A stretch of 64,000 bases of DNA from Vicugna vicugna (Eukaryota): positions 807,498 through 871,497 of the forward strand of contig MU058037.1 of the NCBI GenBank assembly GCA_013265495.1, written 5' to 3'. A program made the position numbers and the translations under genes. The notes below the pieces were generated by a model. The model was given only the letters and a program-made list of their open reading frames with translations. It ran no database searches and was not told the origin of the DNA. Shown here piece by piece: positions 2,416 through 49,029 of the stretch (position 1 is its first letter; every line of letters starts with the position of its first letter).

Positions 2416-2427
2416 AAATACAGAAGG

Positions 2428-6697: not shown

Positions 6698-6900
6698 ATT
6701 ACGAGACTTCCTCGTCTCGGCACAGCTGACTTCACGGGTTGGATTAATTCCTTATTGTAGGGGACTGTCCACTATAAGATGGTGAACAGTATCCCTGGCT
6801 CCTATCTGCTAGATGTTGCCAGTAGCACCCCCAAGTTGTAACAACCAAAACTGTCCCCAGATGTTCCCTGGGGAGCAAAATTGCTCCTGAGAACCAGTGA
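6698..6900. mobile_element. MER20 hAT-Charlie MITE
   Basis: ATCCCTGGCTCCTATCTGCTAGATGTTGCCAGTAGCACCCCCAAGTTGTAACAACCAAAA and GCAAAATTGCTCCTGAGAACCAGTG are diagnostic of MER20. Confidence 0.85.
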
Positions 6901-7080
6901 CTTACATGATCTCTTACAAAATCCTTGTAAAACAAATGTTATTATCACAATTTTATAGCTGAAGAAAGTAAGATTAAAGGAGGATAAAAAAATTTTATCT
7001 AGAGTCATACGGTGAGCAAATGGAGAAGCCAAGATTCGAGCCCCTCTTCTGACTTCAAAGCTGATGATTTTCCTCCTGTC
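6901..7080 (-). mobile_element. MIR SINE
   Basis: ATTATCACAATTTTATAGCTGAAGAAAGTAAG and GGAGAAGCCAAGATTCGAGCCC match the antisense MIR core. Confidence 0.6.
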
Positions 7081-7777
7081 AGTACAAACTTACTTCAGTA
7101 GTATGTTCATAAAGTTAGTTTTGCTGAAATACTTTTATCACATTTGAGTTGAGTGGCATTTATTCTTCTTCACATTTCTTCAGTTTTTCTTCTTATTTAT
7201 TTTTCTATTTCATCTGAACTTTTAAATCTCCTACCTTAGAGGGAAATAATTCCCTCTACTGCTGTGTGAGGATCTTTTTTTTGTATTGTTATTAATCAGT
7301 ACTTTATCACTGTCTTTTCTGAAGCTAGGATGACTTACCTGAACTATCAAGAGCTCATTTTGTTTTAATTTTGACTTCTAAAGAATGTGGGATCCCTCCC
7401 CGCTTGCCTAGTCCACAAATTTCATTAGTCCTTCCTCTATTACATCAATAAAATATTTGCTATTCTGGATGGCATACTCCATTACATGTCTCTTCCCAAA
7501 ATAGCTTTCTATTGGATTTTTGACAGTTTACAATGCATTGATCCCACCTAATTCATAGCATCCCAGTTTTCCATAAAGATGGGATCAGGTGCTGAGGAAA
7601 AGCAGAAGAAAAGGATAATGAACAGGTAAGCAGTGTGACAGTAGCAGCAGCAGCAGTCACAGGAAAAGGCTGTATTCCTTCATCTCCTAGAGGCATATGC
7701 CTTAGGAAAATTATCTAAACACTACAAAATGCAGTTTGAACTCAGTCTTACTCAACACAAATGAAGACTATGAAATA

Positions 7778-8099
7778 TAGTTGACCCTTGAACAACACAA
7801 GAATTATGGATGCCAACTCCCCGCACAGTCAAAAATCCCTGTGCTGTGACCTCTGCCTCAAAAACAAAGGGATTGATAAATGACTCACCCAAGGGCAGGA
7901 AACTGAAACAGTTCGGGTAGGATCCTGACTCCAGCTCTAGTTCTTTGGATCCCACATATTGTGATCTCTAATTGAACACAAACTTACCCACACACTTAGT
8001 TAATTTAAAGATCTGTAATATGAAATTATTTTTATTTTAAAAAATCTGCGTATAAGTGGACCTGCGCAGCTCAAACCTGTGTTGTTCAGGGGTCAACTG
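7778..8099. mobile_element. Tigger2-family (TcMar) non-autonomous DNA transposon
   Basis: TIRs TAGTTGACCCTTGAACAACAC and GTGTTGTTCAGGGGTCAACTG are flanked by TA. The subterminal motif AAAATCTGCGTATAAGTGGACCTGCGCAG is present. Confidence 0.85.
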
Positions 8100-8127
8100 T
8101 ATATGATTTATACCTAGGCTTCAGATC

Positions 8128-9860
8128 CTTTTTTTTTTTAATATATATATCTTTATTGAAGTATAGTCAGTTTATAATGTTGTGTCAATTTCTGGTGTAC
8201 AGCATAATGCTTCAGTCATACATGAACATACATATATTCGTTTTCATATCCTTTTTCACCATAAGTTACTACAAGATATTGTGAGTATAGTTCCCTGTGC
8301 TATACAGTATGAACTTGTTTATTTTATATATATTAGTTAATATCTGCAAATCTCGAACTCCCAATTTATCCCTTACCACCCCTTTCCTGCCCTAGTAACC
8401 ATAAGTTTGTTTTCTATGTCTAGGAGTCTGTTTCTGTTTAGTAAATAAGTTCACTTGGCTTTATTTGTTTAGATTCCACATATAAGTGATATTGTATGGT
8501 ATTTTTCTTTCTCTTTCTGGCTTACTTAGAATGACGATCTCCAGGTCCATCCATGTTGCTGCAAATGGCATTATTTTGTTCTTTTTTATGGCTGAGTAGT
8601 AGTCCATTGTCTAAATATTCCACAACTTCTTTAACCAGTCATCTGTCCATGGACATGTAGGCTGCTTCCATGTCTTGGCTGTTGTAATTAGTGCTGCTAT
8701 GAACATTGGGGTGCATGTGTCTTTTTGAATTAAGGTTCCCTCTGGATATATGCCCAGGAGTGGGATTGCTAGATCATGTGGTAGGTCTATTTTCAGTCTT
8801 CTGAGAAATGTCCATACTGTATTCCATAATGGCTGCAGCAAACTGCATTCCCACCATCAGTGTACAAGGGTTCCCTTTTCTCCACAGCCTCTCCAGTATT
8901 TATCATTTGTGGACTTCTGAATGATGGCCATTCTGACTGGTGTGAGGTGATACCTCATTGTAGTTTTGATTTGCATTTCTCTAATAATTAGCAATATTGA
9001 GCATTTTTTCACGTGCCTATTGACTACTTGTATGTCTTCCTTGGAGAATTGTTTGTTTAGGTCTTATGCCCATTTTTGGATTGGGTTGTTTGTTTTTTTC
9101 TTATTAAGTTTCATGAGCTGTTTATATATTCTGGAAATTAAGCCTTTGTCAGTCTCATCTTTTGCAAATATTTTCTCCCATTCTATAGGTTGTCGTTTTG
9201 TTTTGCTTATGGTTTCCTTTGCTGTGCAGAAGCTTGTAAGTTTCATTAGGTCCTGCTTGTTTATTTTTGCTTTATTTCTGTTGCCTGGGTAGATTGCCCT
9301 AGGAGACCACTGTGAGATTTATGTCAGATAATGTTTTGCCTGTTTTCTTCTAAAAGGTTTACAGTGTCTTGTGTTATGTTTAAGTCTTTAAGCCATTTTG
9401 AGTTTATTTTTGTGTATTGTGTGAGGGAGTATTCTAACTTCATGGATTTATATGCAGCTGTCCAGTTTTCCCAAGAACATTTGCTGAAGATACTGTCGTT
9501 ACTCCATTGTATGTTCTTGCCTCCTTTGCCAAAAATTAATTGACCAGAAGTTTGTGGGTTTATTTCTGAGTGCTCTGTTCTGTTCCATTGATCCTTATGT
9601 CTGTTTTTGTGCCAATACCATGCTGTTTTGATTAATGTAGCTCTGTAGTATTGTCTAAAGTGTAGGAGGGTTATTCCTCCAGCTTCATTCTTTTTCTTGA
9701 GTATTGCTCTGGCAATTCTGTGTCTTTTGTAATTCCATATAAATTTTAGGATTATTTGTTCTAGCTCTGTGAAGAATATCCTGAGTAATTTGATAGGGAT
9801 CACATTAATCTGTAGATTGCTTTGGGTGGTATGGGCCATTTTAACAATATTAATTCTTGA
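8128..9860 (-). mobile_element. 5'-truncated LINE-1 (lineage-specific family): 3' part of ORF2, 3' UTR and poly(A)
   Basis: Poly(T) at 8128. Broken ORFs 9324..9839, 9064..9246 and 8611..8841 match the ORF2 C-terminus ([25 protein letters not shown]). Confidence 0.95.
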
Positions 9861-11207
9861 AATCCTTGTTTATACTTACTAGCTTCAGTGAGAAACCTGA
9901 TTTAGATTTTAAGAGTTCAGCAATGGGTCAAATGGTTTCAGAGGAAAAGAAGGACAAAATTCAATGTTAGTCCATCTTTTAAAATGTAGCCTAACAGACT
10001 TCACAGAAAACACTAAGCTGACAGAAAAAAAAAATAGATTCTCATTTTTCCCCTCTGGTGACTCTAATCACTCTGTCTTGAGGTCAACACTGCAGATGTA
10101 ACAGAATGAAAGTCACAGGTTTTAGAGAATGCCAAATAAGCCAAAGAACAAAACTACAACTGGACTGTAAAGTACTAAGGGACATCTGCTGGATTAATAA
10201 GGTTTTTTTTTTAGGGGTGACCAAAATAATGCATTTGTAAGATGTTTGGGTAAATTGAGTGTGACACCACAAGTCTCATATGGAACAAAGTTCATTCAAA
10301 TACTGGTGGTCTATGTATGTGGCATATGTTTCATAAACACATTTCTCTGACCAGCTGCAAACTATTTAATAACTGGATTACTGATCAAATATTTTGTAAA
10401 TAACCTGTGAGTTGATTGAATTCCATCTGTTTCCTTTTCCTGGTTTGCATGTGTAGGCGCATGAAAGTAACTTAAAACAACTGAATAGCAAGTGCTAAAA
10501 TGACACATTTCCTTTTGGCATCCAGATTGCCAGGACAGAATTTAGGGAATGAGAGAGGTAGGTTGATTTTGCACCCTTAAAGGTTTCTGTTTACTACTTT
10601 ACTATGCTTATCAACAGAACACATGTTTGTTTAAAAGACTCAGGAGGGTTAAGGAAAGAGCCTTGTAAACATTATGTAATGATATGAAAGCCCAGTATTG
10701 AAAATGTCATGACAGACATCTAGTAGAAACTGGGAAAAGAATGATCATTTCCCAAATAGTTAAATGTATGTGAAGTTGGGGGTGAAATACTAAATATTCT
10801 GGTTTTAAATTCAAGGTTTGCACATTTTTAACTGAAAGAAGTCATGGAGATAATGATTTGAGCTATGTTTAGTATCCAATGAACTAATCATTTTCTTATT
10901 AGTAAGTATCTCAGTCAACTTCCAGAATTCCCTTTGACTATATCAAAATATCCCAAGCAAGATGAGATGCTAACAAGTGAGTTTTTAGAATTCAGATTGG
11001 TTTAACAGATGTCACAAGTATCTGTGAATATTTAGGCATCAGAGACATGATAATGCTATGTGTTGATTCACTGTTACCAAAATTCTCATATTCTATGGGG
11101 GCTCCTTTTTGGGTTATGATTGAGGAAGATAAGGACATAAATAAAATCAGAGGTGAGTTATTTGGATCAATACAAATTGGACTATCTCTGTACCTCTATC
11201 ATAGCAA

Positions 11208-16364: not shown

Positions 16365-19317
16365 CAACCGTTCTAACAGATGTTAAGTGATACCTCATCA
16401 AAGCTTTCATTTGCATTTCCCTGATGATGAGTGATGTTGAATATCTTTTCACGTACCTGTTGGGTATCTGTATGTCTTTGGAAAAATGTCTGTTCACATC
16501 TTCTGCCTATTTTTAATCAGATTGCTTGTTGCTATTGAGTTATATGAATTCTTTACATATTTTAGATATTAACCTCTCATCAAAGGTAAGATTTGCAAAT
16601 ATTTTCTTTCATTCAGTAAGCTGCCTTTTTGTTGATGTTTCGTTTGCTATACAGATGGTTTTTAGTTTGATGAGTACCAACGTTTATTTTTGCTTTTGTT
16701 GCCTTTGCTTTAGGAGTTGGATCCAAAAAATCATCACCAACACCAATATCAAGGTGCTTAATGCCTATGTTTTCTTCTTAAGAGTTTTACAGTTTCAGGA
16801 CTTATGGAAGTCTTTCAAGTCTTCAGTTCATTTTGAGTTAATTTTTGTGTATGGTGTACGATAGTGGTTAAGTTTAATTCTTTTGCACGTGGCTGTCCAG
16901 TTTTTCTAACACCATATGTTGAAAAAACTATCTTTTTCCCATTGTATATTCTTGGCTCCTTTGTTGTAAGTTAATTCACCTCATGATAGGTTTATTTCTG
17001 GGCTTTTTATTCTATTCCAGTGATCCATATGTCTATTTTTATGCCAATACCATACTGTTTTCATTGCTATAGTTGTGATACATTTGAAAACAGAGAGCTT
17101 GATGCCTCCAGCTTTGTTCTTATTTCTCAAGACTACTGTGGCTATTCAGGGTCTTTTTTGGTTCCATACAGAATTTTGGACTCTTTATTTTATATCTGTG
17201 AAAAATTGGAGTTTTGATAGGGATTGCATTGAATCTGTAGATTGCTTTGGGTGGTGTGGACATTTTAATGTTATCAGTTCTTCCAGTCCATGAGCATAGA
17301 ATATCTCTCCATTTATTTATATTTTTTCCATGAATGTCTTACAGTTTTCTGTGTACAGGTCTTTCACTTCCTTGGTTAAATTTATTTCTAGGAATTTTGT
17401 TCTCTTTGATGCAATTGTAAATAGGATTATTTTCTTAATTTCTCTTTCTGATAGTTAATTATTAGTATGTAGAAACACAACAGATTTTGTATCCTGTAAC
17501 TTCAGTGAATTTGTTCAGTAGTTCTAACAGGTTTTTTTTGGTGTTTTCTATATATAAAATCATATTGTTCACAGACAGTGACAGATTTACTTCTTCCCAA
17601 TTTGAATGCCTTTTCTTTCTTTTCCTTGCCTAATTGCTGTGATTAGGGTTTCCAATACTATGTTAAATAAAAGCGGTGAGAGTGGGCATCCTTATCTTGC
17701 TCCTGATCTCAGAAGAAAAGCATTTCACCACAGAATATGATGTTAGCTGGGCTTGACATAGATAGCCTTTATTGTGTTGAGGTGTATTCCTTGTTGTGAG
17801 TTTTTATCATAAATGGATGTTGAATTTTGTCAGATGTTTTTTCTGTGTCTTTTGAGATGACCATATGATTTTTATTCGTTTTTTAATGTGTTGTATCACT
17901 TTGATTGATTAATAGACATTAACCGTCATGCATCACTGGAATAAATCCCACTTGATCATGATGTATGATCTTTTTAATATATTATCGAATTTGGCTTACA
18001 AGTATTTTGCGGAGGATTTCTGTATCTATGTTCATCAGTGATACTGGCCTACAATTTTCTTTTCTTGTAGTGTCTTTGGTTTGGGTATCAGGATAATGCT
18101 GCTCCCATAGAACTAGTTGGGAAGCAGTCCCTCCTTTGCTGTTCTTGGAAGAGTTTGAGAAGGATTGGTATAATTCTTTGAATGTAGAATTCACCAGTTT
18201 TGGACTTTTGTTTATTGGGAGTTTTTGTTGTTGTTGTTGTTGTTGTTGTTGTTTTTTATTTCGTGGGTTCAGTCTCCTTACTAGTTATTGATCTGTTTCT
18301 ATTTCTTCATGATTCAGTCTTGGAAGGTTGTATATTTATAGAAATGTATCCGTTTACTTCTGGTTTGTCCAATTTGTTGGCATACAATTATTCTTAGTAG
18401 TCTCTTATGATGTTTCATATGTCTGTGGTATCAGTTGTAACATCTCCTCTTCCATTTCTGATTTTAATTATTTGAGCCCTCTCTGTTTTCTTGGTGAGTC
18501 TAGCTAAAGTTTGTCAATTTTGTTTATTTTTTTTCAGAACCAGCTCTTGGTTTTATTGATCTTTTCTATTTTCTTTTTAGTTTCTATTCATTTAATTCTA
18601 CTCTGATCTTTGTTATTTCCTTCCATCTCCTAACTTTGAGCTTCATTTGTTCTTCTTTTTCTAGTTCTTGAGGTATGAAGTTAGATTGTTTGCTTGAGAT
18701 CTTTCTTGTTTCTTAAGATAGGCATTTATTGCTATGAACTTCCCTCTTAGAACTGCTTTTGCTTTATCAGATAACTTTTGGTATGTTGTATTTCCATTTT
18801 CATCTGTCCTAAGGCCTTTTGGGATGTCTCCGTTTCTTTTTTTACTCCTTGGTTGTTCAGTAGCGTGTTGTTTACTCTCCACATATTTGTGAATTTTCCA
18901 GTTTTCTTCTTGTAATTGATTTCTGGTTTCACAGCATTGTGGTTGGAAAAGATGCTTGATATGATTTCAGTCTTCTTAAATTTAGTAAGTTTTGTTTTGT
19001 GGCCTAATGTGATCTATCCTATAGAATGTTCCATGTGTCCTTAGGAAGAATGGATAGATGCTGCCTTTGGATAGAATGTTCTATAGATATATAGATATAG
19101 ATATAGATATAGATATATAGAGATAGAGAGAGAGAGAGATATCTGTTGAGTCCATCTGGTATAATATGCCATTTAAGGTCGATATTTCCTTACTGATTTT
19201 TTTGCCTGGATGTTCTATCCATTGATATAAGTAATGAAGTTCCTTACTTTTATTCTGTTGTGGTCTGCTTTTCCATTTAGGACTGTTAATATCTGCTTTA
19301 TATATTTAGATGCCTTT
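16365..19317 (-). mobile_element. Old LINE-1 ORF2 segment (EN, RT and C-terminal region; degenerate)
   Basis: ORF remnants '[20 protein letters not shown]' (18661..18882) and 'TTRKENCRPVSLMNID' (17982..18194). It is colinear with the young L1 but has many indels, and contains (GTT)n and (ATATAG)n/(AG)n microsatellites. Confidence 0.9.
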
Positions 19318-25970: not shown

Positions 25971-26909
25971 AAATGACATCAGGTGCAAAAGTATTGGGAA
26001 GGCACTGGAAAAATCCAGCATTTCTGTTTCAAATTCAATGTAGCATTTTTCTGCTCAGTTTGAGTCAAGGTATCTGGCAACTTTCAAGTCAAGGAAGACA
26101 ACTACAAAGACAGGCAGGCCACCCACTGAGTGGCTCAAATCACAGCCCACACAGTCCTCACCTACATCAGAGTCAAGTGCACTCACGTTTCAGAACTTAG
26201 AAACACAGCCTCCATTGAGGAGCACCCTGCTTGCAGCAGGGTATTTGGAAGCAAAGAAGCATGATTGTTTTGAACAAAATAGAAAGTGCAGTACATATAT
26301 TTAGCCAATTAAAATAAATGGTTGTATCTTAAATGGTTATGTAAGCTGTTACATCATAACCTTGATTTTGCTTCTTAGCCTGAGAAGCCTAAAATATTTA
26401 CTATCTTGCCCTTTAAGTAAACATTTGCCAATTTCTTTTTTAGATGAAAAGTGAGGTACTAACAGAGAGATGTTTTCCCTTCAGCCCTACCAGAGGAATG
26501 AGGATTGAAGGCCTAAATCTGTGTCTCACTGTGACTTCCTGTCTCCTTCTCTGTGATTCACTTCCTCCTTTCTTCATACAGAGAGGTTTTAGTCTCCTCT
26601 CTGTGGAGGAACAGAAAGCTAAAGAAGTGTTTGGATTTTTTTTTTAACATTTTTTATTGATTTATAATCATTTTACAATGTTGTGTCAAATTCCAGTGTT
26701 CAGCAGAATTTTTCAGTCATTCATGGACATATACACACTCATTGTCACATTTTTTTCTCTGTGAGTTATCATAACATTTTGTGTATATTTCCCTGTGCTA
26801 TACAGTGTAATCTTGTTTATCTATTCTACAATTTTGAAATCCCAGTCTATCCCTTCCCACCCTCTACCCCCCTGGTAACCACAAGTCTGTATTCTCTGTC
26901 CATGAGTCT

Positions 26910-29900
26910 TTAGATTCCACATATGAGCGATCTCATATGGTATTTTTCTTTCTCTTTCTGGCTTACTTCACTTAGAATGACATTCTCTAGGAGCATCCAT
27001 GTTGCTGCAAATGGCATTATGTTGTCGGTTTTTATGGCTGAGTAGTATTCCATTGTATAAATATACCACCTCTTCTTTATCCAGTCACCTGTTGATGGAC
27101 ATTTAGGCTGTTTCCATGTTTTGGCTATTGTAAATAGTGCTGCTATGAACATTGGGGTGCAGGTGTCATCCTGAAGTAGATTTCCTTCTGGATACAAGCC
27201 CAGGAGTGGGATTCCTGGGTCATATGGTAAGTCTATTCCTAGTCTTTTGAGGAATCTCCACACTGTTTTCCATAGTGGCTGCACCAAACTGCATTCCCAC
27301 CAGCAGTGTAGGAGGGTTCCCCTTTCTCCACAGCCTCTCCAGCATTTGTCATTTTTGGATTTTTGAATGACGGCCATTCTGACTGGTGTGAGGTGATACC
27401 TCATTGTAGTTTTGATTTGCATTTCTCTGATAATTAGTGATATTGAACATTTTTTCATGTGCTTTTTGATCATTTGTATGTCTTCCTTGGAGAATTGCTT
27501 GTTTAGGTCTTCTGCCCATTTTTGGATTGGGTTGTTTATTTTTTTCTTATTGAGTCGTATGAGCTGCTTATATATTTTGGAGATCAAGCCTTTGTCGGTT
27601 TCACTTGCAAAAATTTTCTCCCATTCCGTAGGTTTTCTTCTTGTTTTATTTCTGGTTTCCTTTGCTCTGCAGAAGCTTGTAAGTTTCATTAGGTCCCATT
27701 TGTTTATTCTTGCTTTTATTTCTTCTAGGAGAAAATTTTTGAAATGTATGTCAGATAATGTTTTGCCTATGTTTTCCTCTAGGAGGTTTATTGTATCTTG
27801 TCTTATGTTTAAGTCTTTAATCCATTTTGAGTTGATTTTTGTATATGGTGTAAGGGTGTGTTCTAGCTTCATTGTTTTACATGCTGCTGTCCAGTTTTCC
27901 CAACACCATTTGCTGAAGAGACTGTCTTTATTCCATTGTATATTCTTGCCTCCTTTGTCGAAGATGAGTTGACCAAAAGTTTGTGGGTTCATTTCTGGGC
28001 TCTCTATTCTGTTCCATTGGTCTATATGTCTGTTTTGGTACCAATACCATGCTGTCTTGATGACTGTAGCTCTATAGTATTGTCTGAAGTCTGGGAGAGT
28101 TATTCCTCCAGCCTCTTTCTTTCTCTTCAGTAATGCTTTAGCAATTCTAGGTCTTTGATGGTTCCATATAAATTTTATTATGATTTGTTCTAGTTCTGTG
28201 AAATATGTCCTGGGTAATTGGATAGGGATTGCATTAAATCTGTAGATTGCCTTGGGCAGTGTGACCATTTTAACAATATTGATTCTTCCAATCCAAGAGC
28301 ATGGAATATCTTTCCATTTTTTAAAGTCTTCTTTAATTTCCTTCATCAATGGTTTATAGTTTTCTGTGTATAATTCTTTCACCTCCTTGGTTAGATTTAT
28401 TCCCAGATATTTTATTACTTTGGGTGCTATTTTAAAGGGGATTGTTTCTTTACTTTCTTTTTCTGTTGATTTATCGTTAGTGTAAAGAAAGGCAACTGAT
28501 TTTTGAACATTAATTTTGTAACCTGCTACCTTGCTGAATTCTTCGATCAGCTCTAGTAGCTTTTTTGTGGACCTTTTAGGGTTTTCTATATATAGTAACA
28601 TGTCGTCAGCATATAATGACACTTTTACCTCTTCTTTTCCAATTTGGATCCCTTTTATTTCTTTCTCTTGCCTGATTGCTGTGGCTAGGACTTCCAGGAC
28701 TATATTGAATAGGAGTGGTGATAGTGGGCATCCTTGTCTTGTCCCAGATTTTAGTGGGAAGCTTTTGAGTTTTTCACCGTTGAGAACTATGCTGGCTATA
28801 GGTTTGTCATATATAGCTTTTATTATGTTGAGATATGTTCCCTCTATACCCACTTTGGCGAGAGTTTTTATCATAAATGGGTGTTGAATTTTATCAAATG
28901 CTTTTTCTGCATCGATTGAGATGATCATGTGGTTTTTGTCCTTTCTCTTGTTGATGTGATGTATTACATTGATTGATTTGCGTATGTTGAACCAGCCTTG
29001 TGTCCCTGGGATGAACCCCACTTGGTCATGATGTATAATCTTTTTTATGTGTTGTTGGATTCTATTTGCTAAAATTTTGGTGAGGATTTTGGCGTCTATG
29101 TTCATCAGTGATATTGGCCTATAATTCTCTTTTTTTGTAGTGTCTTTGCCTGGTTTTGGTATCAGGGTGATGGTGGCTTCATAGAATGAGTTTGGGAGTA
29201 TTCCCTCCTTTTCAATCGTCTGGAAGAGTTTGAGAAGGACTGGTATGAGTTCTTCTTTGTATGTTTGGTAGAATTCCCCGGTGAAGCCGTCCGGTCCTGG
29301 ACTTTTATTTGTAGGGAGGTTTTTAATTGCTATTTCTATTTCCTTTCTAGTGATCGGATTGTTCAAGTGTTCAGTTTCTTCTTGATTCAGTTTTGGTGGA
29401 CAGTATGTTTCCAGAAACTTGTCCATCTCCTCTAGGTTATCCAGTTTGGTTCCATATAGTTTTTCATAATATTCTCGTATGATATTCTGTATTTCTATTT
29501 TGTTTGTTGTAATTTCTCCATTTTCCTTTCTTATTTTGCTAATTTGTGCTCTCTCTTTTTTCTTCTTTGTGAGTTTGGCCAGAGGTTTGTCGATTTTATT
29601 TACTTTTTCAAAAAACCAGCTTTTGGTTTGGTTGATTTTTTCTATGGTCTTGTTAATCTCTATTGTATTTAATTCCTCTCTGATCTTTATTATTTCCTTC
29701 CTTCTGCTGCTTTTTGGGGCTTTTTGTTCTTCTTTTTCTAATTGATTCAGGTGGTGGGTTAACTTGTTTATTTGAGATTGTTCTTCTTTTTTGAGGAAGG
29801 CCTGTATCGCTATAAACTTCCCTCTTAGCACTGCCTTTGCTGTGTCCCATAGGTTTTGAGTGGTTGTGCTTTCATTATCATTTGTCTCAAGGTATTTTTT

Positions 29901-30707
29901 AATTTCAGCTTTGATTTCCTCATTGATCCATTGTTTTTTCAATAACATATTGTTTAATCTCCATGCTTTTCTTTTTTTCTCCTTTGTTTCTCTGTTGTTG
30001 ATTTCCAGTTTCATGGCATTGTGGTCAGTAAAGATGCTTGAGATAATTTCTATCTTCTTAAATTTGTTGAGGTTTCTTTTGTGTCCAAGTACATGATCGA
30101 TCCTGGAAAATGTTCCATGTGCACTTGAAAAGAATGTATATTCTATTTTTTGGGGGTGTAATGCTCTGAAAATATCCACCAAATCTAGTTTTTCTATTGT
30201 AGTATTTAATTTCTCTGTTGCCTTGTTTATTTTCTGTCTGGAAGATCTGTCTAGTGATGTTAATGCAGTGTTAAAATCTCCAACTATGATTGTATTCCCA
30301 TCAATATCCCCCTTTATCTCTGTTAGTAATTCTTGTATGTACTTAGGTGCTCCTATATTGGGTGCATATATATTAACGAGTGTAATATCTTCATCTTGTA
30401 TCACTCCTTTAATCATTATAAAATGTCCTTCTTTATCTTTCTTTATGGCCTTTGTTTTAAAGTCTATTTTGTCTGAAATCAGTACTGCAACACCTGCTTT
30501 TTTGGCTTTTCCATTTGCATGGAATATCCTTTTCCATCCTTTCACTCTCAATCTATATGTGTCCTTCTCCCTAAAGTGGGTCTCTTGTATGCAGCATATT
30601 GAAGGTTCTTGCTTTATTATCCAGTCTGCCACTCTATGTCTTTTGACTGGAGCATTTAGTCCATTAACATTTACAGTAATTAATGATAGATGTGTGTTTA
30701 TTGCCAT
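26910..30707 (-). CDS. LINE-1 ORF2p (endonuclease/reverse transcriptase), intact, 1265 aa
   Basis: APE-EN motifs NVNGLN, CIQETH, YAPN, GDFN, RIDH and TDH; PIP box [18 protein letters not shown] motifs [26 protein letters not shown] and KYLG; C-terminal [18 protein letters not shown]. Confidence 0.97.
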
Positions 30708-31104
30708 TTTGAACTTATCTTTGCAGTTGAATTGGTATATCCTCTTTGTTCCTTTCTTCTTCCTTTTGTGGTTTGGTAATTTTCCTTTGTATTATCATGG
30801 ATTTTATTTAATTTTTGTGACTCCCTTGTAAATTTTTGACTTGTGGTTACCCTTTTTTGTAAATCTATTAACCTATACCCGTTTTTAATAAACTGATAAT
30901 AACATGATCTCAAACCCATCCTACTGTTAAAAAAATTTAAAAAAGAAAGAAAAAAAATTCTATATTTCCCTGCCTCCCTCTCCCACTCTCAGTGATTTGT
31001 ATGTCTTCTTTTATAATTTCGTGTTTTCTTTATTTGTAATTCATGAGTTATCACCTTTCCAGTTGTACGTTTCTCATTTCTGTAGCATCCTGCTGCTTTT
31101 CTAT

Positions 31105-32008
31105 TTAGAATAGCCCTTTCAATATTTCTTTTAGCATGGGTTTAGTGTTGCTAAACTCCTGCAGCTTTTTTTTGTCTGTGAAACTCTTTATTTCTCCTTC
31201 TATCCTAAAGGATAGCCTTGCTGGATAAAGTATCCTAGGCTGCATCTTTTTTTCATTCAGGGCTTTGAATATATCTTGCCACTCCCTTCTGGCCTGTAGT
31301 GTTTGTGTAGAGAAATCAGCTGAGAGCCTTATGGGGGTTCCCTTGTAGTTCACTCTTTGCTTTTCTCTTGCTGCCTTTAGAATCATTTCTTTATCCTTGA
31401 CTCTGGCCATCTTGATTATGATATGTCTTGGTGTGGGTCTATTTGGGTTCTTCCTGTTTGGGACCCTCTGAGCTTCCTGTACTTGGATATCTGATTCCTT
31501 CTTTAAGTTTGGGAAGTTTTCAGTCATGATTTCTTCAAAAACCTTTTCAATCCCCTTTGATCCTTCTTCCCCTTCTGGGACCCCTATTATGCGAAGATTG
31601 GGATGCTTTATATTATCCCATAGGTCCCTTATGCTATTATCATTATTTTTTATTTGCTTATCTTGTAGTTCTTCTGAATGGGTGCTTTCTATGGCCCTGT
31701 CTTCTAGATCACTAATTTCGTTCCTCTGCATTAACTATTTGGCTTTGCACAGTTATTAGATCATTCCTCATCTCTGTCAATGAGTTTACCCATTCTGCTT
31801 GGCTCTTCTTTATAGCTTCAATTTCATTTTTGACATATTTTATCTCTCTAAGCACTATCTCTTTTAATTCCTTCAGCAATTTGATCACTCCTTTTTTGAA
31901 ATCTTGATCTAGTAGGCTATCGATGTCTATTTCATTGATCTTTCTTTCAGGGGATTCCTCTTGTTCTTTTAATTAGGAAAGGTTTCTCTGCTTCTTCATC
32001 TTGCTCAT
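31105..32008 (-). pseudogene. LINE-1 ORF1p, disrupted (about 300 aa when repaired)
   Basis: ATG at 32008 gives MSKMKKQRNLS*LKEQEESPE, with TAA at 31973-31975. An extra A at 31716-31718 shifts the frame. The downstream frame (31105..31731) encodes the RRM/CTD motifs NLRIIGVPE, ENFPNL, ARREW and YPARLS. Confidence 0.9.
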
Positions 32009-32405
32009 ACCTCTCTGGCACTGTGGTTTATGGAGTATCAGTTGTCTATTTTGGATCTTAAGGATTTTATCTATCTAATGCCTATTTAGGAATAGAACTT
32101 AGGAAAAAAAAAGAAAAAAATAAGAGAGAGAGAGAAAGATTTTTTAAAAGAAGGGAGAAAGAGGGTTTGAAAACAGTGTATAATGAATAATAGAAGAGCG
32201 AGTTGAAGCAGAGTATTATTCGGGTTGAGACGTCCTTTTAAAACCTTTGAAAAAGAAGGGGGGTAGATGAATAGATGTATCTGAAACCTGTGACTAATCA
32301 ATAACAGGACATCAAAACCCAAGAGAAATAGAAATGAATTAAGAAGTAAGAATTAAGAGAGTAATAGAAAATAGAACAGGTAAAAACAGATTTAAAAAAA
32401 AAGGG

Positions 32406-32961
32406 NNNNNNNNNNNNNNNNNNNNNNNNNNNNNNNNNNNNNNNNNNNNNNNNNNNNNNNNNNNNNNNNNNNNNNNNNNNNNNNNNNNNNNNNNNNNNNN
32501 NNNNNNNNNNNNNNNNNNNNNNNNNNNNNNNNNNNNNNNNNNNNNNNNNNNNNNNNNNNNNNNNNNNNNNNNNNNNNNNNNNNNNNNNNNNNNNNNNNNN
32601 NNNNNNNNNNNNNNNNNNNNNNNNNNNNNNNNNNNNNNNNNNNNNNNNNNNNNNNNNNNNNNNNNNNNNNNNNNNNNNNNNNNNNNNNNNNNNNNNNNNN
32701 NNNNNNNNNNNNNNNNNNNNNNNNNNNNNNNNNNNNNNNNNNNNNNNNNNNNNNNNNNNNNNNNNNNNNNNNNNNNNNNNNNNNNNNNNNNNNNNNNNNN
32801 NNNNNNNNNNNNNNNNNNNNNNNNNNNNNNNNNNNNNNNNNNNNNNNNNNNNNNNNNNNNNNNNNNNNNNNNNNNNNNNNNNNNNNNNNNNNNNNNNNNN
32901 NNNNNNNNNNNNNNNNNNNNNNNNNNNNNNNNNNNNNNNNNNNNNNNNNNNNNNNNNNNNN
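32406..32961. other. Assembly gap (556 N) inside the L1 5' UTR
   Basis: Run of N. Confidence 1.
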
Positions 32962-33319
32962 GTTTAACTTAGTTCTGTCAGACAAGGGCTGCTCTGTACA
33001 GATCCGAGCCTCGGAGGCTCCCCCTCCGTCCCGCTGGCCTCTCAGTTGGAGAGGGGAGACCCAGCGAGCGAGCGCCAGTCCTCCTTTGCCGCTCCCTCCC
33101 CGCGGGACCCGTCCCGCGCTGCTTTGCCTTTTGTTCTTTCTTTTTTCCTTTTCTCCTACCAGATTTTTGGCGTCTTTATCTTTTGAAGAGGGCGATGTTC
33201 TGTCGGAGTTCCGCAGGTGCTCTGGTTGGCTGAGTGGGTCTGTAGATGTGGGTCTTGGTGTATTTGTGGGAGACGGTGATTTACGAGCGTCCTTCTACTC
33301 CGCCATCTTGCCTCTTCTC
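32962..33319 (-). promoter_or_regulatory. L1 internal promoter: CpG-rich 5' UTR with a YY1-type site
   Basis: CGCCATCTTG at 33301-33310 (reverse complement CAAGATGGCG) sits about 10 nt from the element's 5' end. Many CpGs are retained compared with the flanks. Confidence 0.8.
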
Positions 33320-33339
33320 TGTTTGGATTTTTTTTTTAA

Positions 33340-33865
33340 TCGCTGCATAATGATCACTACAAACTTAGCTTCATAAAACAACAATTATTTTCTCTTCCTC
33401 CTCGTCGTCTCATAGTTATGGATGCTGATTGGGCTAAGCTAGGTGGTTCTTACTAGGAGTCCAGTGGTAGCTGGGGCTAAGTCCCTATAACAGGCATTCT
33501 CTGAGATGCCTGTCACCTAAACTGAAAGACTCAAACAGCTTAGGAATGGAACAGCCAGGACATCTCTATCTCTCTGTGCTCTCTCTAGCATGGTGGCTTC
33601 AGGTGAGCCATACTTCTTACATGGTTGCTCTGTGTGCCAAAGGTCTGAATCTAGAGAAAGAGAGCATGCCAGGTCAAGATTATACTGCCTGTCTGCTTTT
33701 TATAACCTAGCCTTGGTAGTCCTGTAGTATTACTGTGCCTATTCTCTACTGCTGCCATAGCAAATCATCACAGATTTAGTGGTTTAAACAACACAAAATT
33801 ACTATTTCATGGCTTTGTAGGTCAGATGTCCAGGTATGGTATGCATGGCTGGTTCCTCTGCTCCT
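33340..33865 (-). mobile_element. MLT1 LTR fragments (probably two elements)
   Basis: GCTGCATAATGATCACTACAAACTTAGC and CTGCTGCCATAGCAAATCATCACAGATTTAGTGGTTTAAACAACAC resemble antisense MLT1 3' termini. Confidence 0.65.
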
Positions 33866-34240: not shown

Positions 34241-35584
34241 ATTTTTCCAACTTTATTGTATTAACATAGAACACTGTATAAGTGTAAAGTGTACAATTTG
34301 ATGATTTTATTTATTTATATACACACACATACACAGTGAGATGATTAACACAGTATATACTAGGTTAACACATCTCTCACGTCACATAGTTAGCATTTTT
34401 GTGTGTGTGGTAAGAACTTTTGAAATGTACTCTCTTAGCAACTTTCGGGTGTACAATAAAATATTGTTAACTATAATCATCATTCTGTACATTAGATCCC
34501 CAGAACTCATTCATTTTATAACTGGAAGTTTGGGCTGTTTGACCACCTTCACCCACTTCCTTTACCCATTCATCTCTTGATGGAAACACTTAAGTTGTTT
34601 TCATGTCTTGGCTAGTAAACAATACTGCAGTGAACATAGAGGTGCATATATCTCTTGAACATAGTGAAGAGATATGTTCCTTCTTTTCCTTATGATGTAC
34701 ACCCAGAAGTAAAAGTGCTGGATAGTATGGTAGTTCTATTTTTAAGTTTTCGAGGAATCTCCATACTGTCTTCCATAGGGACCACACCAATTGACAGTCC
34801 CACCAACAGTGCACAAGAGTTTCCTTTTCTCCATATCCTTATCAGTATTTGTTAACTCTTGTGTTTTTGATAATAACCATTTTAACAGATGTGAGGTGAT
34901 AGCGCACTGTAGTTTTGATCTGCATTTCCCTGATGGTGATGGTGAGCACCTTACCATGTACCTGTTGGCCACTGAATATCTTCTTTGGGAGAGTGTCTAT
35001 TCAGGCCTTTTGCCTATTTTTAATTGGATTATTTTTATTTTTGCTGTTGAATTGTATGTGTTCTTTATATATTTTAGATACTAGCTCCTTATCAGAAAGC
35101 TGGATTGCAAATTATTTTCTCCTACTTTGTAGGTTGCCTTCTCATTCTATTGATTGTTTCTTTTCATATGTTGCTTTTTAATTTGATGTAGTCCCACCTG
35201 GTTGTTTTTTTTTAATTTGTTGCTGTGCTTAAGGTATCATATCCAAAAAATCATTGCCAAGACCCATGTGAAGGAGCTTTTTTCCTATGTTTTCTTCCAG
35301 GAGTTGTATGGTTTCAGGCCTTACATTTAAGTCTTTAATCCACTTCAAGTTAATTTTTGTGCGTGGTGTAAGATAGGGGTGCAGTTTCATTCTTTTGCAC
35401 ATGGATATCCAGTTTTCCCAGTCCTACTTAGACTATCTTTTCCCCATTGTGTATTCTTGGTTCCCCTATCAAATATTAGTTGACCATACATGCATGGGTT
35501 TATTTATGGGCTGTCAATTCTGTTTCAGTGATCTTTGTGTCTGTTTTATGCCACTAGCATTCTGTTTTGATTACTATAGTTTTT
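34241..35584 (-). mobile_element. L1MA9-like 3' portion; continues at 38586-38945
   Basis: 3' UTR motif TACATTAGATCCCCAGAACTCATTCATTTTATAACTGGAAGTTTG and ORF2 remnant '[20 protein letters not shown]' (34590..34814). Confidence 0.85.
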
Positions 35585-38500
35585 CAAAATAGACTTTATT
35601 CTTTTAGAGCAGTTTCAGGTTCACAACAGAATTGAACAGAAAATACAGAGAGTTTGCACACAGCCCTCCCCACCCACACATACATACTCCCCTACCCTCA
35701 ACATCCCTCATCAGTGTGGCAGATTTGGTACAATTGATGAACCAACATGGGCACATTATTATTAACCCAAGTCCATAGTTCACATTAGGGTTCACTCTTG
35801 ATGTTGTACATTCTATGTGTTTGACAAATGCATATTGACACGTAGCCACCACTGTAGTATCATACAGAATAATTTCATTGCCCTAAAAATCCCTTGTGCT
35901 CCATCTGTTCATCCCTCCCTCCCTCCCTCCCTGTCCCCAAACCCCTGGAAACCATGATCTTTTTATTGTTTCTGTAGCTGTGCCTTTTCCAGAATGTCAT
36001 TTGGTTGGAATCATACAGTTTGTAGCCTTTTCAGGCTGGCTTCTTTCATTTAGTAATATGTCTTTTAAGCTTCTTCCATGTCTTTCATGGCTTGATAGGT
36101 CATTTTTTTTTACTACACATATATTTTTTAATTTACATATATGTACTGTTCCTTGTTTCTAAGAACGTTTAGATCTTTAGCTTTTTAAACTTACATAGTT
36201 ATCAAAGGAATAAAGACAAGCAGAAAATAAGAATTAACTCAAAAAGATACATACACCCTGCTGTTAACAGCAACATCATTTGTAATTGCCAAGATACTGA
36301 AGCATCCTAAGTGCACATCAATAGGTGAATAGATAATGAAGAGGCAGCATATATATACATACACATACACACACACATATATACATACACATATACATAA
36401 TGGAATACAAGTCACCCATTAAAAAAGGAGGACATTTTGCCATTTGCAGCCCTTCATTCACTTTTTTTTTTTCACTTCAAAAACCAGAATTTTATAACTG
36501 GCAGAGACATTTTCCGTTACACCAAAAACAACAAAATACCTGGAAATAAACTTAACCAAGGAGGTTACCTATACTCTGAAAACCAAAATGACACAAAGAA
36601 ATGGAAAGATTTCTTGTGCTCCTGGATTGGAAGAATCAATAGTGGCAAAATGGCCACACTACCCAAAGCAATCCACAGATCCAACGCAACCCCTATCAAA
36701 AAATACTCACAACACTCCTCACAGAACTAGAACAAACAATTCCAAAATGTATAAAGAATCACAAAAGACCCCTAACAGCCAAAGCAATCTTGTAGGTCTC
36801 TCTTTTTTCTTTTTCTTCTTCTCTTTTCGTATGGTTTGATGACTAGAGAAGGTCATTTAACATTTGTTGTAAAGCTGGTTTGGTGGTGCTGAAATCTTTT
36901 AGTGTTTGTTTATCTGTGAAGGTTTTGATTTCTCCATCGAGTCTGAACGAGAGCCTTGCTGGATAGAGTATTCTTGGTTGTAAGTTTCCCCTTTGCATCA
37001 CTTTAAATATATCCATGCCACTCCCTTCTGGCCTGTACAGTTTCTGCTTGAAAATCTGCTGATTCTTATGGGAGTTCCCTTGTATGTTATTTGTTGCTTT
37101 TCTCTTGCTAATTTTAATATTGTCTCCTTATCCTTAATTGTTGTCAATTAATGAACCTCTTTGCGTTCATTCTGTGTGGTACTTTGTGTTTCCAGGACTT
37201 GGGTGACTGTTTCCTTTCCCAAGTTGGGGACATTTTTGATTATTATCTCCCGCAAAATTTTCTCAGGTCCTTTCTCTCTTCTCGTTCTGAGACCCCTGTA
37301 ATGCGAGTATTAGAGCGCTTCAGGTTGTCCCAGAGTTCTCTTAAACTATCCTCATTCCTTTTTCTTTTTTCTTTTTTCTGTTCTGCAGTAGTGATTTCCA
37401 CTGATCTGTCTTCTAGCTCACTGATCGTTCTTCTGCCTCATGTAGTCTATTCTAGGTTCCTTCTAGTGTATTGTTCATTTCAGTGATTTTATTCTTCAAC
37501 TCTGGGTATTTATCTTTTCCAACTCTGTGGTAAAGACTTTGCTCTGTGCATCTATACTCCTCTTGAGTTCTCTGACCATCTTGGCCATCTTTACTTTAAA
37601 CTCTTCCTCAGATAATTTACCTATCTCCTCATCACTTATTTGTTCTTCTGGGATTTTATCATGGGCCTTGGCCTGGGAGATGTTTGTGGACTCCTTCCAC
37701 AGGCTTTGGGATTATTGTGTTCTTATTTCTGGTATCTGCCCCTTCTGGATGAAGCTGGACTAGAGGCTTATGCAGGTTTCCTGGCAGGAGGAGCAGTGGC
37801 CTGCCCACTGCAGGTAAAGTTTGGTCCTGGACCTCTGGTGGGTGGGTCTGTGTCTGGAGGCCTTTGTGGTTCAGGAGGTCTGCTGCTGGGTGGGGTTGTG
37901 TTCCCACCTTGGAGGTTGGCCTGAGGCTTCCCTACAGGCTGTTGGGTGCTAATGATGCAATCAAAATGTCAGCCTCTAGGAAAGCTCATGTAGATTAATA
38001 CTGCCAGAATATCCACCACCAGCTTTTATGTCCCCTGGGTGAGCCACAGCCGTCCTCCATGTCCCCAGGAGATCCTCCAAATCTAGCAGGCAGGCCTGGC
38101 CCAGGTTCGTATGAAATCACTGCCTCTGCCCTTGGACCTGGTGCACGTGAGTTTCCGTGTACGCTTCTCAAGCGAATGGGACTCTCCGTTTCCCCCCGTC
38201 CCGTCAGGCTCCCAGAGCCAAGTCCCCCAGTCCTTCAAAACCAGATGTCCTGGGGTCTCCTTCTCTTCCCAATGCCAGGACCCGAGCTGGGGAGCCTGAC
38301 GTGGGGCTTAGAGCTCTCACTCCTGTGGGAGGGCCTCTGCAACTTAACTAATCTTCAGGTGGTGGGTCACCCACCTTTGGGGGTATGTGGCCCAATTATG
38401 TCACCAGAGCACTCCTCCTACCGTCCTGCTGTGGTTCCCTCTTTATGTTTCCAGTTGCAGAAGATCTTTGCTAGGTTCCAGTCTTTTTTCCGATGGTTGT

Positions 38501-41417: not shown

Positions 41418-41480
41418 AGAGAGGCTGTAGGTCAGGGTCAGAGTGTAGGCCTAGCATGCAGGAGGTCCTGGGTTTAATTC
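41418..41480 (+). mobile_element. Degenerate or truncated vic-1-like SINE head (tRNA part only)
   Basis: GGCCTAGCATGCAGGAGGTCCTGGGTTTAATTC matches the reverse complement of 23770-23810. No tail or TSD is visible. Confidence 0.6.
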
Positions 41481-45625: not shown

Positions 45626-47304
45626 AGTTACTCTAGATTAAAAAAGAAGTTATCCTGAAGACACCAAAATGGAGATAATCAGAACTGCACTGGCACAAAA
45701 CATGACAAGAGAATCACAAAGGAAACCAAGTCTAATATTCTATATAGAAAAGTCCTCACCTGGAATTGGAAAAGCTCCATGAATGGCACCAGCTGCTGGT
45801 AAACCATTTGACTCTTCTTAGTTCCCTCATTTAGAAAGTGAGAGTGTTCTGGGTGTAAAATGTTCTAATTCTTTCTGAGGTTCTTCCTCTAAACCTCTCA
45901 GCCTTCCCCTCTGGACCAATAGATAAGTGAAGTGGTTCTTTTGCCAGTTTCCTTGCCTAGGATCAAGCTACTCTATGGGCCTTTCTAAAGATCACTTCTG
46001 TGTTCTATTTTAAGTGTCCTTCACATACAAGACTCTTGACCCATCTGAACTAGGTTATAATGCAAACCTCAAGTTCGCTGCACACTTTTCTGTCCTTATC
46101 TTAGCCTCTCTTCCATAGCAAGGAAACATCCTTGCAAGGCTGCTGCCCAAGGTGGAGCTCAAAGTCCACAGTGATACTTGGAATAAAGCCTTAGAGAATT
46201 TTAATTCATATCATTGGCCTTCCCGACCTGGTGTCTCGTAAAAACTCACAAACCTTGGACAAACTCAATCAACAACATAAACAAATCAACTATAACATAT
46301 CCTTTAAGATGATTGCATCTTCTCAAACCCCAAGATCTAAATAGAAGACATTTTGGAAATCTCATAGAATAGACTAGTGGCAGAATAGACTAGTGGCCTC
46401 TCAAACTAAACTTAGGGTCTTTCATCTTATTTGTGACTAATCTAGTGCCTGACATTTACAGGTATATTGAATACATTTATTACCTTCCAGAGAGAAATAC
46501 TTACTAGCATTCATCTGCTGTTTTTGTTTCCTTATCTGTGAGTTTTTCCCTTTCTCGTTTGCTTTCATAACTATCTTTGCCTCACACACGCATACAAATT
46601 TAGATACTGCATGAAAGAACTGTGACAACAACCATAAGAAATATAGCGACAGAGTAGACTATAGCACATGGAAATAGACATAATTTCTTATGCATACAAA
46701 ATTCCTGATTTCAAAACTAATGGTGAGATTTGTTCAGAGATACGATGACATATGAAGAATGTAACAGAAAACAGCAACAAGATGATGAGTGGAATGAAAT
46801 AACAATTGATCAGTATGTTTCTGGAATGGAATCTACCAAACAACTTACTTTCCTAGGTAATTAAATTTGTAGATTTTTAAAAGAATTCATATGTTATTTA
46901 TCGTCACAAGCATTAACTATTACTCTGACTTCACAAATGACAAAATGAAAGAGTTGTTTGTCTAAGAGTAAAACTGAGATCTTCAAACTGAAACTTCCAT
47001 CACCTTTTCAATATGCTCTGTAACATACTGTTAGCCAAAACTTAACCTAAACCACATTTGTTCTAAAGCATATTCATATACTTGATTCAGGAAGCAAGAT
47101 AGCTAAACATAGTAAATCATTTTGATAATATAGAAACAAAACAGTGTGATCTGATTATGGCAGGGGAAAAAAGCCCAGGCGGTTACTGTTATACATGAGA
47201 CTCATTTTAGTACAGATAGTAATTGCAAGGAACCATGGGGTGGAAAAAGGGTGCTGAGTTTTCAGTGCAAATGCCACCTCAAAGCATCAGAATGTTTCAA
47301 CATC

Positions 47305-48511
47305 GTCAGAACATTATCCAACATAAATTTAAGCAATGTTCTCCTAGGACAGTCTACCCAGGCAATAGAAATAAAAGCAAAAATAAACAAATGGGACCTA
47401 ATTAAACTCAAAAGCTTTGGCACAGCAAAGGAAACCATAAGCAAAACAAAAAGACAACCTATGGAATGGGAGAAAACATTTCCAAAAGATGAGACTGACA
47501 AGGTCTTAATTTCCAGAATATATAAACAGCTCATACAACTTAACAAAAAAACCAACAACCCAATCCAAAAATGGGCAGAAGACCTAAACAAGCAATTCTC
47601 CAAGGAAGACATACAAATGGCCAATTGGCACATGAAAAAATGCTCACTATCACTAATTATCATAGAAATGCAAATCAAAACTACAATGAGGTATCCCCTC
47701 ACACCAGTCAGAATGGCCATCATTTTAAAGTCCACAAATGACAAATGCTGGAGAGGCTGTGGAGAAAAGGGAACCCTCCTACACTGCTGGTGGGAATGCA
47801 GGTTGATGCAGCTGTTATGGAAAACAGTGTGGAGATGCCTTAAAAAGCCACAAATAGACTTACCATATGATCCAGCAATCCCACTTCTGGGTGTATATCT
47901 GAAAGGAACTGTAATGTGAAAAGATACATGCACCCCAATGTTCACAGCAGCACTATTTACAATAGCCAAGACATGGAAGCAACCTAAAAGTCCATAGATA
48001 GATGACTGGATAAAGCAGCTGTGGTGAATTTATACAATGGAATACTACTCAGACATAAAAAAGAATAAAATGCCATTTGCAGTAACATGGATGGACCTGG
48101 ACATAGTCATTCTAAGTGAAGTAAGCCAGAAAGAGAGAAAAATATCATATGATATCACTTATATGTGGAATCTAAAAAAAAAAAAGGAAAAGAGGACACT
48201 AATGAACTCATCTATAAAACAGATACAGATTTGCAGACATACTAAACAAACTTATGGTTACTGGGGAAAGGGAGTGGGAAGGGATAAATTTGGGAGTTTG
48301 AGATTTACAAATGTTAACCACTATATATAAAAATAGATTAAAAAAATTTCTTCTGTATAGCACAGGGAACTATGTTCAATATCGTGTAGTAACCTTTAAT
48401 GAAAAAGAATATGAAAATGAATATATGTATGTATATGCATGACTGGGACATTAAGCTGTACACCAGAAATTGATACATTATAACTGACTATATATATTTC
48501 AGTTTAAAAAA
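47305..48511 (+). mobile_element. 5'-truncated LINE-1 (lineage-specific) with a degenerate TSD
   Basis: ORF 47251..47919 matches the ORF2 C-terminus, followed by a 3' UTR and A-tail. TSD-like AATGTTTCAACATC (47291-47304) pairs with AAAGTTTCAACAAC (48512-48525). Confidence 0.95.
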
Positions 48512-49029
48512 AAAGTTTCAACAACCTTTGTACACATTATAAGTAAAATTTTAAATCACATCAGGAATGCTTGTAACAAATTAAAGTGCATGATCAGAGT
48601 ATCCATTTTGGAGGTTGGCACTAACATTGGCAAGACAGCTGTACCTTATTGCTTAAAATTACTCCTCAGTTTTCATTTAACCTAAGCAAAATACCTATAT
48701 GCAAAGAAAAAGCATACACATTCAAATATTGAAATATTTTGAAAACCAAATCTCCCAACTAATTGGCGAACTTGGAAGATTCAGGGAAAATGAAAGCAGA
48801 GTGACAGTTCTAACAGTGGCTGAGTATTTGGACCATTAGTCTCTTTTATACCTGAGATCCTAAGAGTCAATGAATCACATCTAAGTATCACAATTCTCCT
48901 TACTAGTTATTTTGATGTCTTGCTAAATGACCTTCCATAACTACCCTTACTGAATAATGGCTACATACCTTGGGCTGGAATTCAGGGCCATTCAAAAACT
49001 ACCTTTCAATCTCGTCCTTCACACACTAT

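Follow-up and report, generated by a model that had tools for sequence, protein, structure and literature searches.

L1 elements that combine an intact ORF2 with a disrupted ORF1 form a class of their own, ORF2-L1, in L1Base 2, where according to the database description 107 human and 563 mouse members are listed as potential drivers of Alu (PMC5210629). For camelids, supplementary Table 6 of a 2016 survey puts the number of ORF2-only L1s, counting fragments, at 186 for dromedary and 49 for wild camel (PMC5203782). The locus described here lies in a 64-kb stretch of DNA (the window), and the idea that an element of this composition may drive SINEs had been put forward for it; this idea is not new, being already embodied in the database class. 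As assembled, the locus has an open ORF2 and a disrupted ORF1 in a full-length L1, as ORF2-L1s do, and it falls outside the FLI-L1s of L1Base, in which ORF1 is uninterrupted. It differs from the ORF2-L1 class in that its ORF2 is six wrist residues short and is preceded by a 397-nt spacer, and camelids are unnamed among the species in the accessible part of the L1Base 2 description (PMC5210629). As it stands, the locus adds a single ORF2-L1 to the hundreds that a genome contains, and it marks recent camelid L1 activity.

Human L1 ORF2p (PDB 8UW3, 8SXT, 9HDO, 9K6G) is colinear with the window ORF2 over its full length (1956 bits), with EN, RT, wrist and Cys motifs in common, and the PUB Trp of the human protein, W1004, is kept. 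In contrast, the window ORF2 has YADD for FADD, and lacks approximately K997-M1002 as well as one residue near 1043. YADD is also present in the homolog P0026 and in one more of 120, and it was rejected as a lesion because P0026 carries it. The inter-ORF spacer, 63 nt in human L1, is long here for a mammal; those of pig, elephant, hyrax and opossum measure 423-719 nt, and the spacers of pig and other long-spacer mammalian L1s are likewise AT-rich with A runs, camelids not being among the long-spacer species named in the accessible text of that comparison (PMC5381506). The same source gives a range of 3,807-3,882 nt for ORF2 in 14 mammalian consensus sequences, below which the window ORF2 falls at 3798 nt with its stop (PMC5381506). 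Within the camelids, the window ORF1 is identical at 282 of 300 residues to P0121, a natural unbroken ORF1 of the young LINE-1 lineage, and the C-terminus of ORF2 is 88% identical to P0242, an exonised ORF2 piece from Camelus bactrianus. P0242 has a one-residue deletion in common with the window ORF2 but retains the six residues that are absent from it.

Results

Anatomy of the element

The locus is a young full-length L1 on the minus strand (33319-26648), with the anatomy and the lesions as first described (Table 1). It possesses an ORF2 with an APE endonuclease, a reverse transcriptase and a Cys-rich C-terminus, a Transposase_22-type ORF1 that is present 5' of ORF2 in broken form, a poly(A) signal, a TT/AAAA target-site duplication (TSD) and a GC-rich 5' UTR with promoter features, of whose 1311 bases 556 are unseen. 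The two copies of the TSD, TTAAAAAAAAAATCCAAACA, match at 20/20 positions (33339-33320 versus 26647-26628) and are thus perfect, as had been claimed; with the TT/AAAA site and both ORFs in L1 order, they bear out the description of the element as young and full-length. No separate poly(A) tail is distinguishable from the A10 of the TSD. It had also been stated that the 5' UTR keeps its YY1 site and CpGs. This is correct for the first 358 bp, which contain both, the motif CAAGATGGCGG being one that we take to be YY1-type; the statement does not extend to the bases within the gap, and the 5' end is joined to the body of the element solely through the scaffold and the TSD.

Table 1. Coordinates of the element and its parts within the window.
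Feature	Position	Strand	Remarks
TSD, 5' copy, 20 bp	33320..33339	-	L1-endonuclease-like TT/AAAA start
5' UTR, first 358 bp	32962..33319	-	GC 0.56; 21 CpG, observed/expected 0.74
Presumed YY1-type site, CAAGATGGCGG	33310-33300	-	within first 358 bp of 5' UTR
Assembly gap, 556 N	32406..32961	.	inside 5' UTR
5' UTR, 3' part, AT-rich	32009..32405	-	GC 0.32; 3 CpG
ORF1, 904 nt, broken	31105..32008	-	C-terminal part matches Transposase_22 and Tnp_22_dsRBD (Pfam)
Premature TAA, ORF1 codon 12	31973..31975	-	Q in P0121 and in 32/36 homologs aligned there
AAA run at ORF1 +1 frame shift	31716..31718	-	from comparison with P0121
208-aa ORF	31105..31731	-	own ATG; ends at normal ORF1 stop; at least 10 ATGs upstream
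Inter-ORF spacer, 397 nt	30708..31104	-	five ATGs
ORF2, 1265 aa, one open frame	26910..30707	-	EN, RT and Cys motifs present
18-bp in-frame deletion site, six residues	27723..27724	-	versus older window L1 copies
3-bp in-frame deletion site	27603..27604	-	common to P0242, an older Camelus bactrianus L1 piece
3' UTR, ~260 nt	26648..26909	-	two deletions versus older window copies; AATAAA at 26658
TSD, 3' copy	26628..26647	-	A10 inside doubles as sole tail

The lesions in ORF1

The extent of ORF1 from its ATG at 32008 to the stop at 31105 was reproduced, and the reading of its frame is confirmed by the alignment with the intact P0121 (300 aa). At position 12, P0121 and most homologs have Q where the window has the TAA, in agreement with the proposed origin of this stop from CAA. 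P0121 reads EERISDL across the break in the window frame, which goes +1 after codon 97, near 31717, and this supports the single extra A of the original prediction. The frameshift puts the start ATG of the 208-aa ORF in frame with the C-terminal half of ORF1. P0121 itself indicates that unbroken ORF1s of this lineage exist. The window and P0121 differ at 18 positions, and the homologs back P0121 at Q12, K18, R90, E116, E123 and R149 and, more weakly, at A86, R135 and R208; R90Q and R135H are compatible with CpG transitions. Among 84 strongly conserved ORF1 columns, three are broken in the window only and one in P0121 only. Searches with P0121 produced 121 and 185 pattern matches, none of which was confirmed as a locus.

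Fourteen read runs of whole-genome size, from five studies (10 marked "DNA?" and 4 of unknown kind), each contain 0.91-0.94 of 672 sampled words, and most of the element is therefore real sequence in other animals. The 6-9% of words that are missing from all 14 runs correspond to roughly 12-19 isolated changes, enough to hide both ORF1 lesions as errors or private alleles. An assembly artefact could take two forms: the lesions may be errors and the L1 wholly intact, or paralogous reads may have been assembled into a mosaic 5.8-kb body, so that the open ORF2 and the broken ORF1 never share a chromosome. We consider this unlikely, although it carries appreciable weight. Besides the missing words, it is favored by the gap that splits the element, by the extra ORF1 base, which extends an A run, by the lower observed/expected CpG ratio of ORF1 (0.09) than of ORF2 (0.20), and by the numbers of intact ORF2s reported across camelid assemblies (512, 50 and 0; PMC5203782), which in our view suggest a strong dependence on assembly method. 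A simple Poisson model with an assumed indel rate places up to ~1% of young copies in this exact state and gives 0.037 for both of two hits falling in ORF1; if the copy is ~0.2% from its family, two disabling ORF1 hits have a chance of about 2%, which raises the odds of assembly error. Against an artefact, the stop is of C-to-T type and lies in no homopolymer, and the lesions do not adjoin the gap, as had been supposed, but are ~430 and ~690 bp away from its edge. Further, broken conserved columns are alike in ORF1 (4/84) and ORF2 (27/578), with no visible mosaic boundary, and the multiple window-side changes in ORF1, some of them CpG-type, look more like real decay than like two lone errors.

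ORF2 and its wrist deletion

ORF2 matches Exo_endo_phos (aa 10-229) and RVT_1 (aa 516-772) in Pfam. Its endonuclease motifs are CIQETH 39, VGDFN 142, SRIDH 201 and TDHNA 227, those of the RT and Cys domains IDAEKAFD 598, YADDM 699, CWRGC 1122 and HCWWEC 1134, and the translation includes IQNIIREYY, presumably the PIP-type segment. The 27 of 578 conserved columns at which it differs show nearly all conservative changes, and other long ORF2s differ at 0-49. The prediction of an intact ORF2 thus holds as regards 1265 open codons with the motifs in place, but not as regards full length, given in-frame deletions of 18 bp and 3 bp; three older L1 copies in the window cover these sites, and both deletions are seen against every one of them. 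The ORF2 sequence was absent from the protein collection searched, and a 29-nt camelid ORF2 pattern matched nothing in contigs from metagenomes, genomes and viruses.

The 3-bp deletion, being present in P0242 as well, is a trait of the camelid lineage. The 18-bp deletion corresponds approximately to human K997-M1002, in the star cluster of the wrist domain, 8 residues before the PCNA-binding Trp. The star cluster is mutation-sensitive in human ORF2p, and by alignment the six missing residues fall in a region that is essential in the human protein, beside the PCNA-binding helix. The segment around the deletion was measured between anchors in 298 of 390 proteins, the other 92 missing one or both anchors; 288 of the 298 are 5-7 residues longer than the window ORF2, 8 are 1-4 longer, 2 exceed it by 10 or 32, and none is as short. 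In a phmmer search with the sequence around the deletion, none of the best 150 relatives exceeded 76% identity. An AlphaFold model of aa 790-1265 (mean pLDDT 50.7, pTM 0.38) is too poor to judge the deletion, and no inference was drawn from its Foldseek match to human ORF2p at a TM of only 0.22. Beside the deletion there are six substitutions in 27 sites (P 0.017, uncorrected), a cluster that is not exceptional, since two other 28-nt windows hold seven. We give slightly less than even weight to the idea that these six residues were lost throughout the youngest camelid L1 lineage and that it still retrotransposes. If the deletion is such a trait of the active camelid family, it would serve as an experiment of nature on the star cluster and the PUB region, which are mutation-sensitive in human ORF2p.

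Status of the locus

We favor, with moderate confidence, the view that this is a near-silent ORF2-L1, a recent camelid insertion in neutral decay whose disabling hits fell in ORF1 by chance and which contributes little or nothing to SINE mobilization. The TSD, the endonuclease-type site and the full-length anatomy show that the element, which belongs to the most recent L1 lineage of camelids, was inserted by target-primed reverse transcription. Neutral decay probably followed, with both disabling hits in ORF1 by chance; the absence of clear decay in ORF2 counts against this part. An L1 without ORF1p is unable to copy itself, and the earlier statement that this locus cannot move holds for the broken ORF1 as assembled, from which no ORF1p and hence no self-copying would be expected. 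If the locus is transcribed at all, ribosomes would halt at codon 12 of ORF1, and ORF2, normally reached by termination and reinitiation after ORF1, would by comparison with human L1 be translated at a level far below normal. Any ORF2p made here would also be short of the six wrist residues, and beside many other young L1s the locus would add little or nothing to SINE mobilization.

It had been proposed instead that the locus could supply ORF2p to vic-1 SINEs. The premise that ORF2p is the main requirement of pol III SINEs is supported (PMC2666806), and the ORF2 is open with its catalytic motifs. The inference skips steps, because a premature ORF1 stop greatly lowers ORF2p from bicistronic human L1 (PMC2951350; PMC4176336) because six residues of a region essential in human ORF2p are gone, and because it takes for granted that vic-1 is currently active and that the locus itself is transcribed; a literature search found no paper on vic-1 SINE activity. 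A SINE-driver role is therefore poorly supported. For the locus to be a true driver in trans, its CpG-rich promoter would have to be active, ORF2 would have to be translated without ORF1 through the spacer, by an IRES or by reinitiation after a short spacer ORF, the deletion would have to be a trait that the family tolerates, and vic-1-type SINE RNA would have to be mobilized by the resulting ORF2p. The spacer offers some encouragement, in that 32 of 36 long spacers are predicted to contain an IRES (PMC5381506). It also holds a 27-codon ORF whose end, at 30715, lies 7 nt short of the start codon of ORF2. The effect of human ORF1 stops may fail to transfer to an element with such a spacer, and if the spacer uncouples ORF2 from ORF1 the locus would bear on the reinitiation-versus-IRES question for L1 ORF2 translation. 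Six RNA runs contain 0.48-0.62 of the sampled words, shares that reflect the family and are unassignable to this copy. The substitution cluster is a weak hint of lineage remodeling, matched elsewhere as noted. As potential cargo, the window contains a simple, tRNA-like SINE flanked by a TSD of 19 bp, but it is the sole clear SINE in the 64 kb and, with 1 mismatch between its TSD copies, an older one; one Bactrian annotation leaves ~100,000 non-MIR SINEs (560,273 less 460,330), but other annotations give only ~1,500 to 9,500. The lack of any homolog with so short a segment and the sensitivity of the region also argue against a driver, and the survey's 326 two-ORF L1s in dromedary (PMC5203782) make a special one unnecessary. 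Taken together, we judge such a role improbable. The broader proposal that wrist loss in the youngest camelid L1, combined with a spacer freeing ORF2 from ORF1, makes ORF1-dead copies full-strength drivers of camelid tRNA SINEs is a shade more doubtful still.

That an ORF1-dead sub-lineage spreads by borrowing ORF1p from intact L1s, with ORF2 under selection and lesions common to many copies, is highly improbable. In its favor, ORF1 is doubly broken beside 3.8 kb of clean ORF2, and the window-specific ORF2 changes (32 synonymous, 40 nonsynonymous, 0 stops) are richer in synonymous sites than those of dead L1 copies in the window (25/45, 30/54 and 14/29). Against it, such an excess is expected anyway from descent from a selected master lineage, chance yields the pattern in ~1% of young copies, and no second copy with either lesion was found among 120 ORF1 matches, a weak test since these are proteins.

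The label tRNA-like for the window SINE comes from a loose A/B-box scan, with one convincing match among 22 printed, and is in part our assumption. Rfam (3 weak matches in the window, 5 in the SINE region) and ARAGORN, run over ~63 of the 64 kb, did not recognize the SINE as tRNA-like. The view that nearly all camelid SINEs are MIR is weakened by this element and by the Bactrian count given above.

Structure of the focal element

By all of the sequence features tested the locus is a LINE-1, and as assembled it would be classified as an ORF2-L1 (L1Base class; ORF2 intact, ORF1 disrupted) and not as a two-ORF intact element. The original prediction described a single 1265-codon ORF2 with its motifs retained, and this is borne out by the agreement of frame, Pfam domains and motif positions; the catalytic and Cys motifs are all in place, and a sequence comparison finds the frame colinear with human ORF2p. 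The two lesions reported in ORF1 were also recovered. Of 300 positions, 18 differ between the window ORF1 and P0121, a natural unbroken 300-aa ORF1 protein of the same lineage; P0121 carries Q at position 12 and reads continuously across the site of the frame break. The perfect TSD was confirmed as well, both 20-bp copies being TTAAAAAAAAAATCCAAACA, and the TSD and target site together show, at the level of sequence, insertion by TPRT. The 358 bp of 5' UTR ahead of the N gap hold 21 CpGs and a YY1-type site. The 5' flank of the element (33340-33830) looks like an old MLT1-type LTR, presumably the LTR into which the L1 inserted.

Coordinates of the focal L1 and of other repeats and ORFs in the window
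Feature	Position	Strand	Remarks
Focal L1	33319 to about 26648	minus	flanked by identical 20-bp TSD copies
5' UTR of focal L1		minus	1311 bp total, of which 556 bp are N
ORF1	904 nt from ATG 32008	minus	TAA at codon 12; frame shift after codon 97
ORF2	26910-30707	minus	single 1265-aa frame; endonuclease and RT Pfam domains
27-codon spacer ORF	30798-30715	minus	ends 7 nt before the ORF2 ATG
73-codon spacer ORF	30919-30698	minus	overlaps the ORF2 ATG out of frame
Simple SINE	23836-23710	minus	tRNA-like, about 127 bp
SINE TSD	23855-23837 and 23709-23691		19 bp, 1 mismatch
Older truncated L1 copies	8130-9865, 16368-19056, 47299-48512, 56145-58055, 63231-63758, 34560-37436		3' ends of camelid L1s, forming an age series

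Age of the element and reality of the lesions

Because the TSD is perfect and the older L1 copies in the window are only 68-85% alike to it, the focal element is young. Of 672 words sampled, a share of 0.91-0.94 is present in fourteen genome-sized runs (5 studies, 2 organisms), one of which may be the assembly's own source, and 0.48-0.62 in six RNA runs. These shares, which are element-wide totals, show the bulk of the sequence to be present in other animals and the family to be transcribed somewhere. The 6-9% of words missing from the genome-sized runs correspond to about 12-19 isolated changes, at positions that the share does not give.

We consider it probable that this is a young ORF2-L1 of an ordinary kind that has begun to decay and makes little or no useful ORF2p. 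A rather unlikely alternative is that an assembly error or mosaic lies behind the combination of a broken ORF1 and an open ORF2; the element does span an N gap, and for a copy that differs from its family by just 0.2% the computed chance of two hits in ORF1 is about 2%. However, the lesions are accompanied by other window-side changes in ORF1, two of them CpG-type, and 3 of 84 conserved ORF1 columns are broken in the window only; this indirect evidence favours real decay.

Mobility and translation of ORF2

L1 mobility in cis is reported to require ORF1p (PMC5203782), and for this reason the element would be immobile in cis. To this extent the original interpretation, a young full-length L1 that cannot move itself, stands; its further proposal, that the locus drives SINEs in trans, we regard as improbable. 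The proposal draws on the dependence of pol III SINE RNAs on ORF2p, pol II versions needing ORF1p too (PMC2666806). Against it, a stop in ORF1 left tagged ORF2p "greatly diminished" (PMC2951350), and translation of ORF2 is described as surviving only in-frame damage to ORF1 (PMC4176336). Translation of ORF2 is believed to begin by termination and reinitiation after ORF1 (PMC5972666).

Two putative escape routes for ORF2 translation exist in the sequence. The frameshift brings ATG 31731, which has at least 10 ATGs upstream, in frame with a 208-aa ORF that runs to the normal ORF1 stop, and a 397-nt spacer separates ORF1 from ORF2. For long spacers of this kind IRESs were predicted, not demonstrated, in 32 of 36 cases, and in the sole functional test described, on a megabat spacer, the spacer was dispensable (PMC5381506). 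The two short spacer ORFs could affect initiation at ORF2.

The partner SINE is likewise uncertain. The tRNA-like SINE, presumably vic-1-like, is the sole clear copy in 64 kb. A 33-bp stretch at 41443-41474 (+), 88% like its middle (E 1e-4), is perhaps a decayed or truncated copy. vic-1 is listed as a simple SINE of camels (PMC3531059); published counts of non-MIR SINEs run from about 1,500 (PMC8605555) to about 100,000 (PMC6675863). On present activity of vic-1 the literature searched, including bioRxiv 10.1101/2022.12.28.522108 by term, yielded nothing. A spreading ORF1-dead sub-lineage is very improbable.

A shortened wrist in ORF2

Deletions in ORF2 and in the 3' UTR are, from the sequence comparisons, an addition to the original description. 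Relative to the three older window copies that span the region, ORF2 has in-frame deletions of 18 bp and 3 bp, and the 3' UTR has two further deletions relative to older window copies. The 18-bp deletion maps to about human K997-M1002, inside both the wrist domain (863-1061; PMC10830420) and the "star cluster" (F952-C1020), whose residues are poorly conserved yet mutation-sensitive (bioRxiv 10.1101/721357). Shortly after it come W1011 and I1014, two residues that bind PCNA (PMC7617806). Segment length between two anchors was measurable in 298 of the 390 ORF2-type proteins gathered, and none of these 298 is as short as the focal ORF2; 288 are longer by 5-7 residues, eight by 1-4 and two by 10 or 32. 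Searches of the protein collection and contigs found no close ORF2 relative. The 27 sites beside the deletion hold six substitutions, a weak hint of lineage remodelling, but two other stretches of 28 nt hold seven. Only 27 of 578 conserved ORF2 columns differ, nearly all conservatively, and apart from the deletions ORF2 looks healthy. The shortened wrist and the long spacer are the lead worth keeping from this locus.

The 3-bp deletion is shared by P0242, an ORF2 piece from Camelus bactrianus that is 88% identical to the focal ORF2 and retains the six residues. It forms the C-terminal 270 aa of a GTF2F2 isoform model (XP_074234302.1), which probably reflects either an error of gene modelling or exonisation of an L1.
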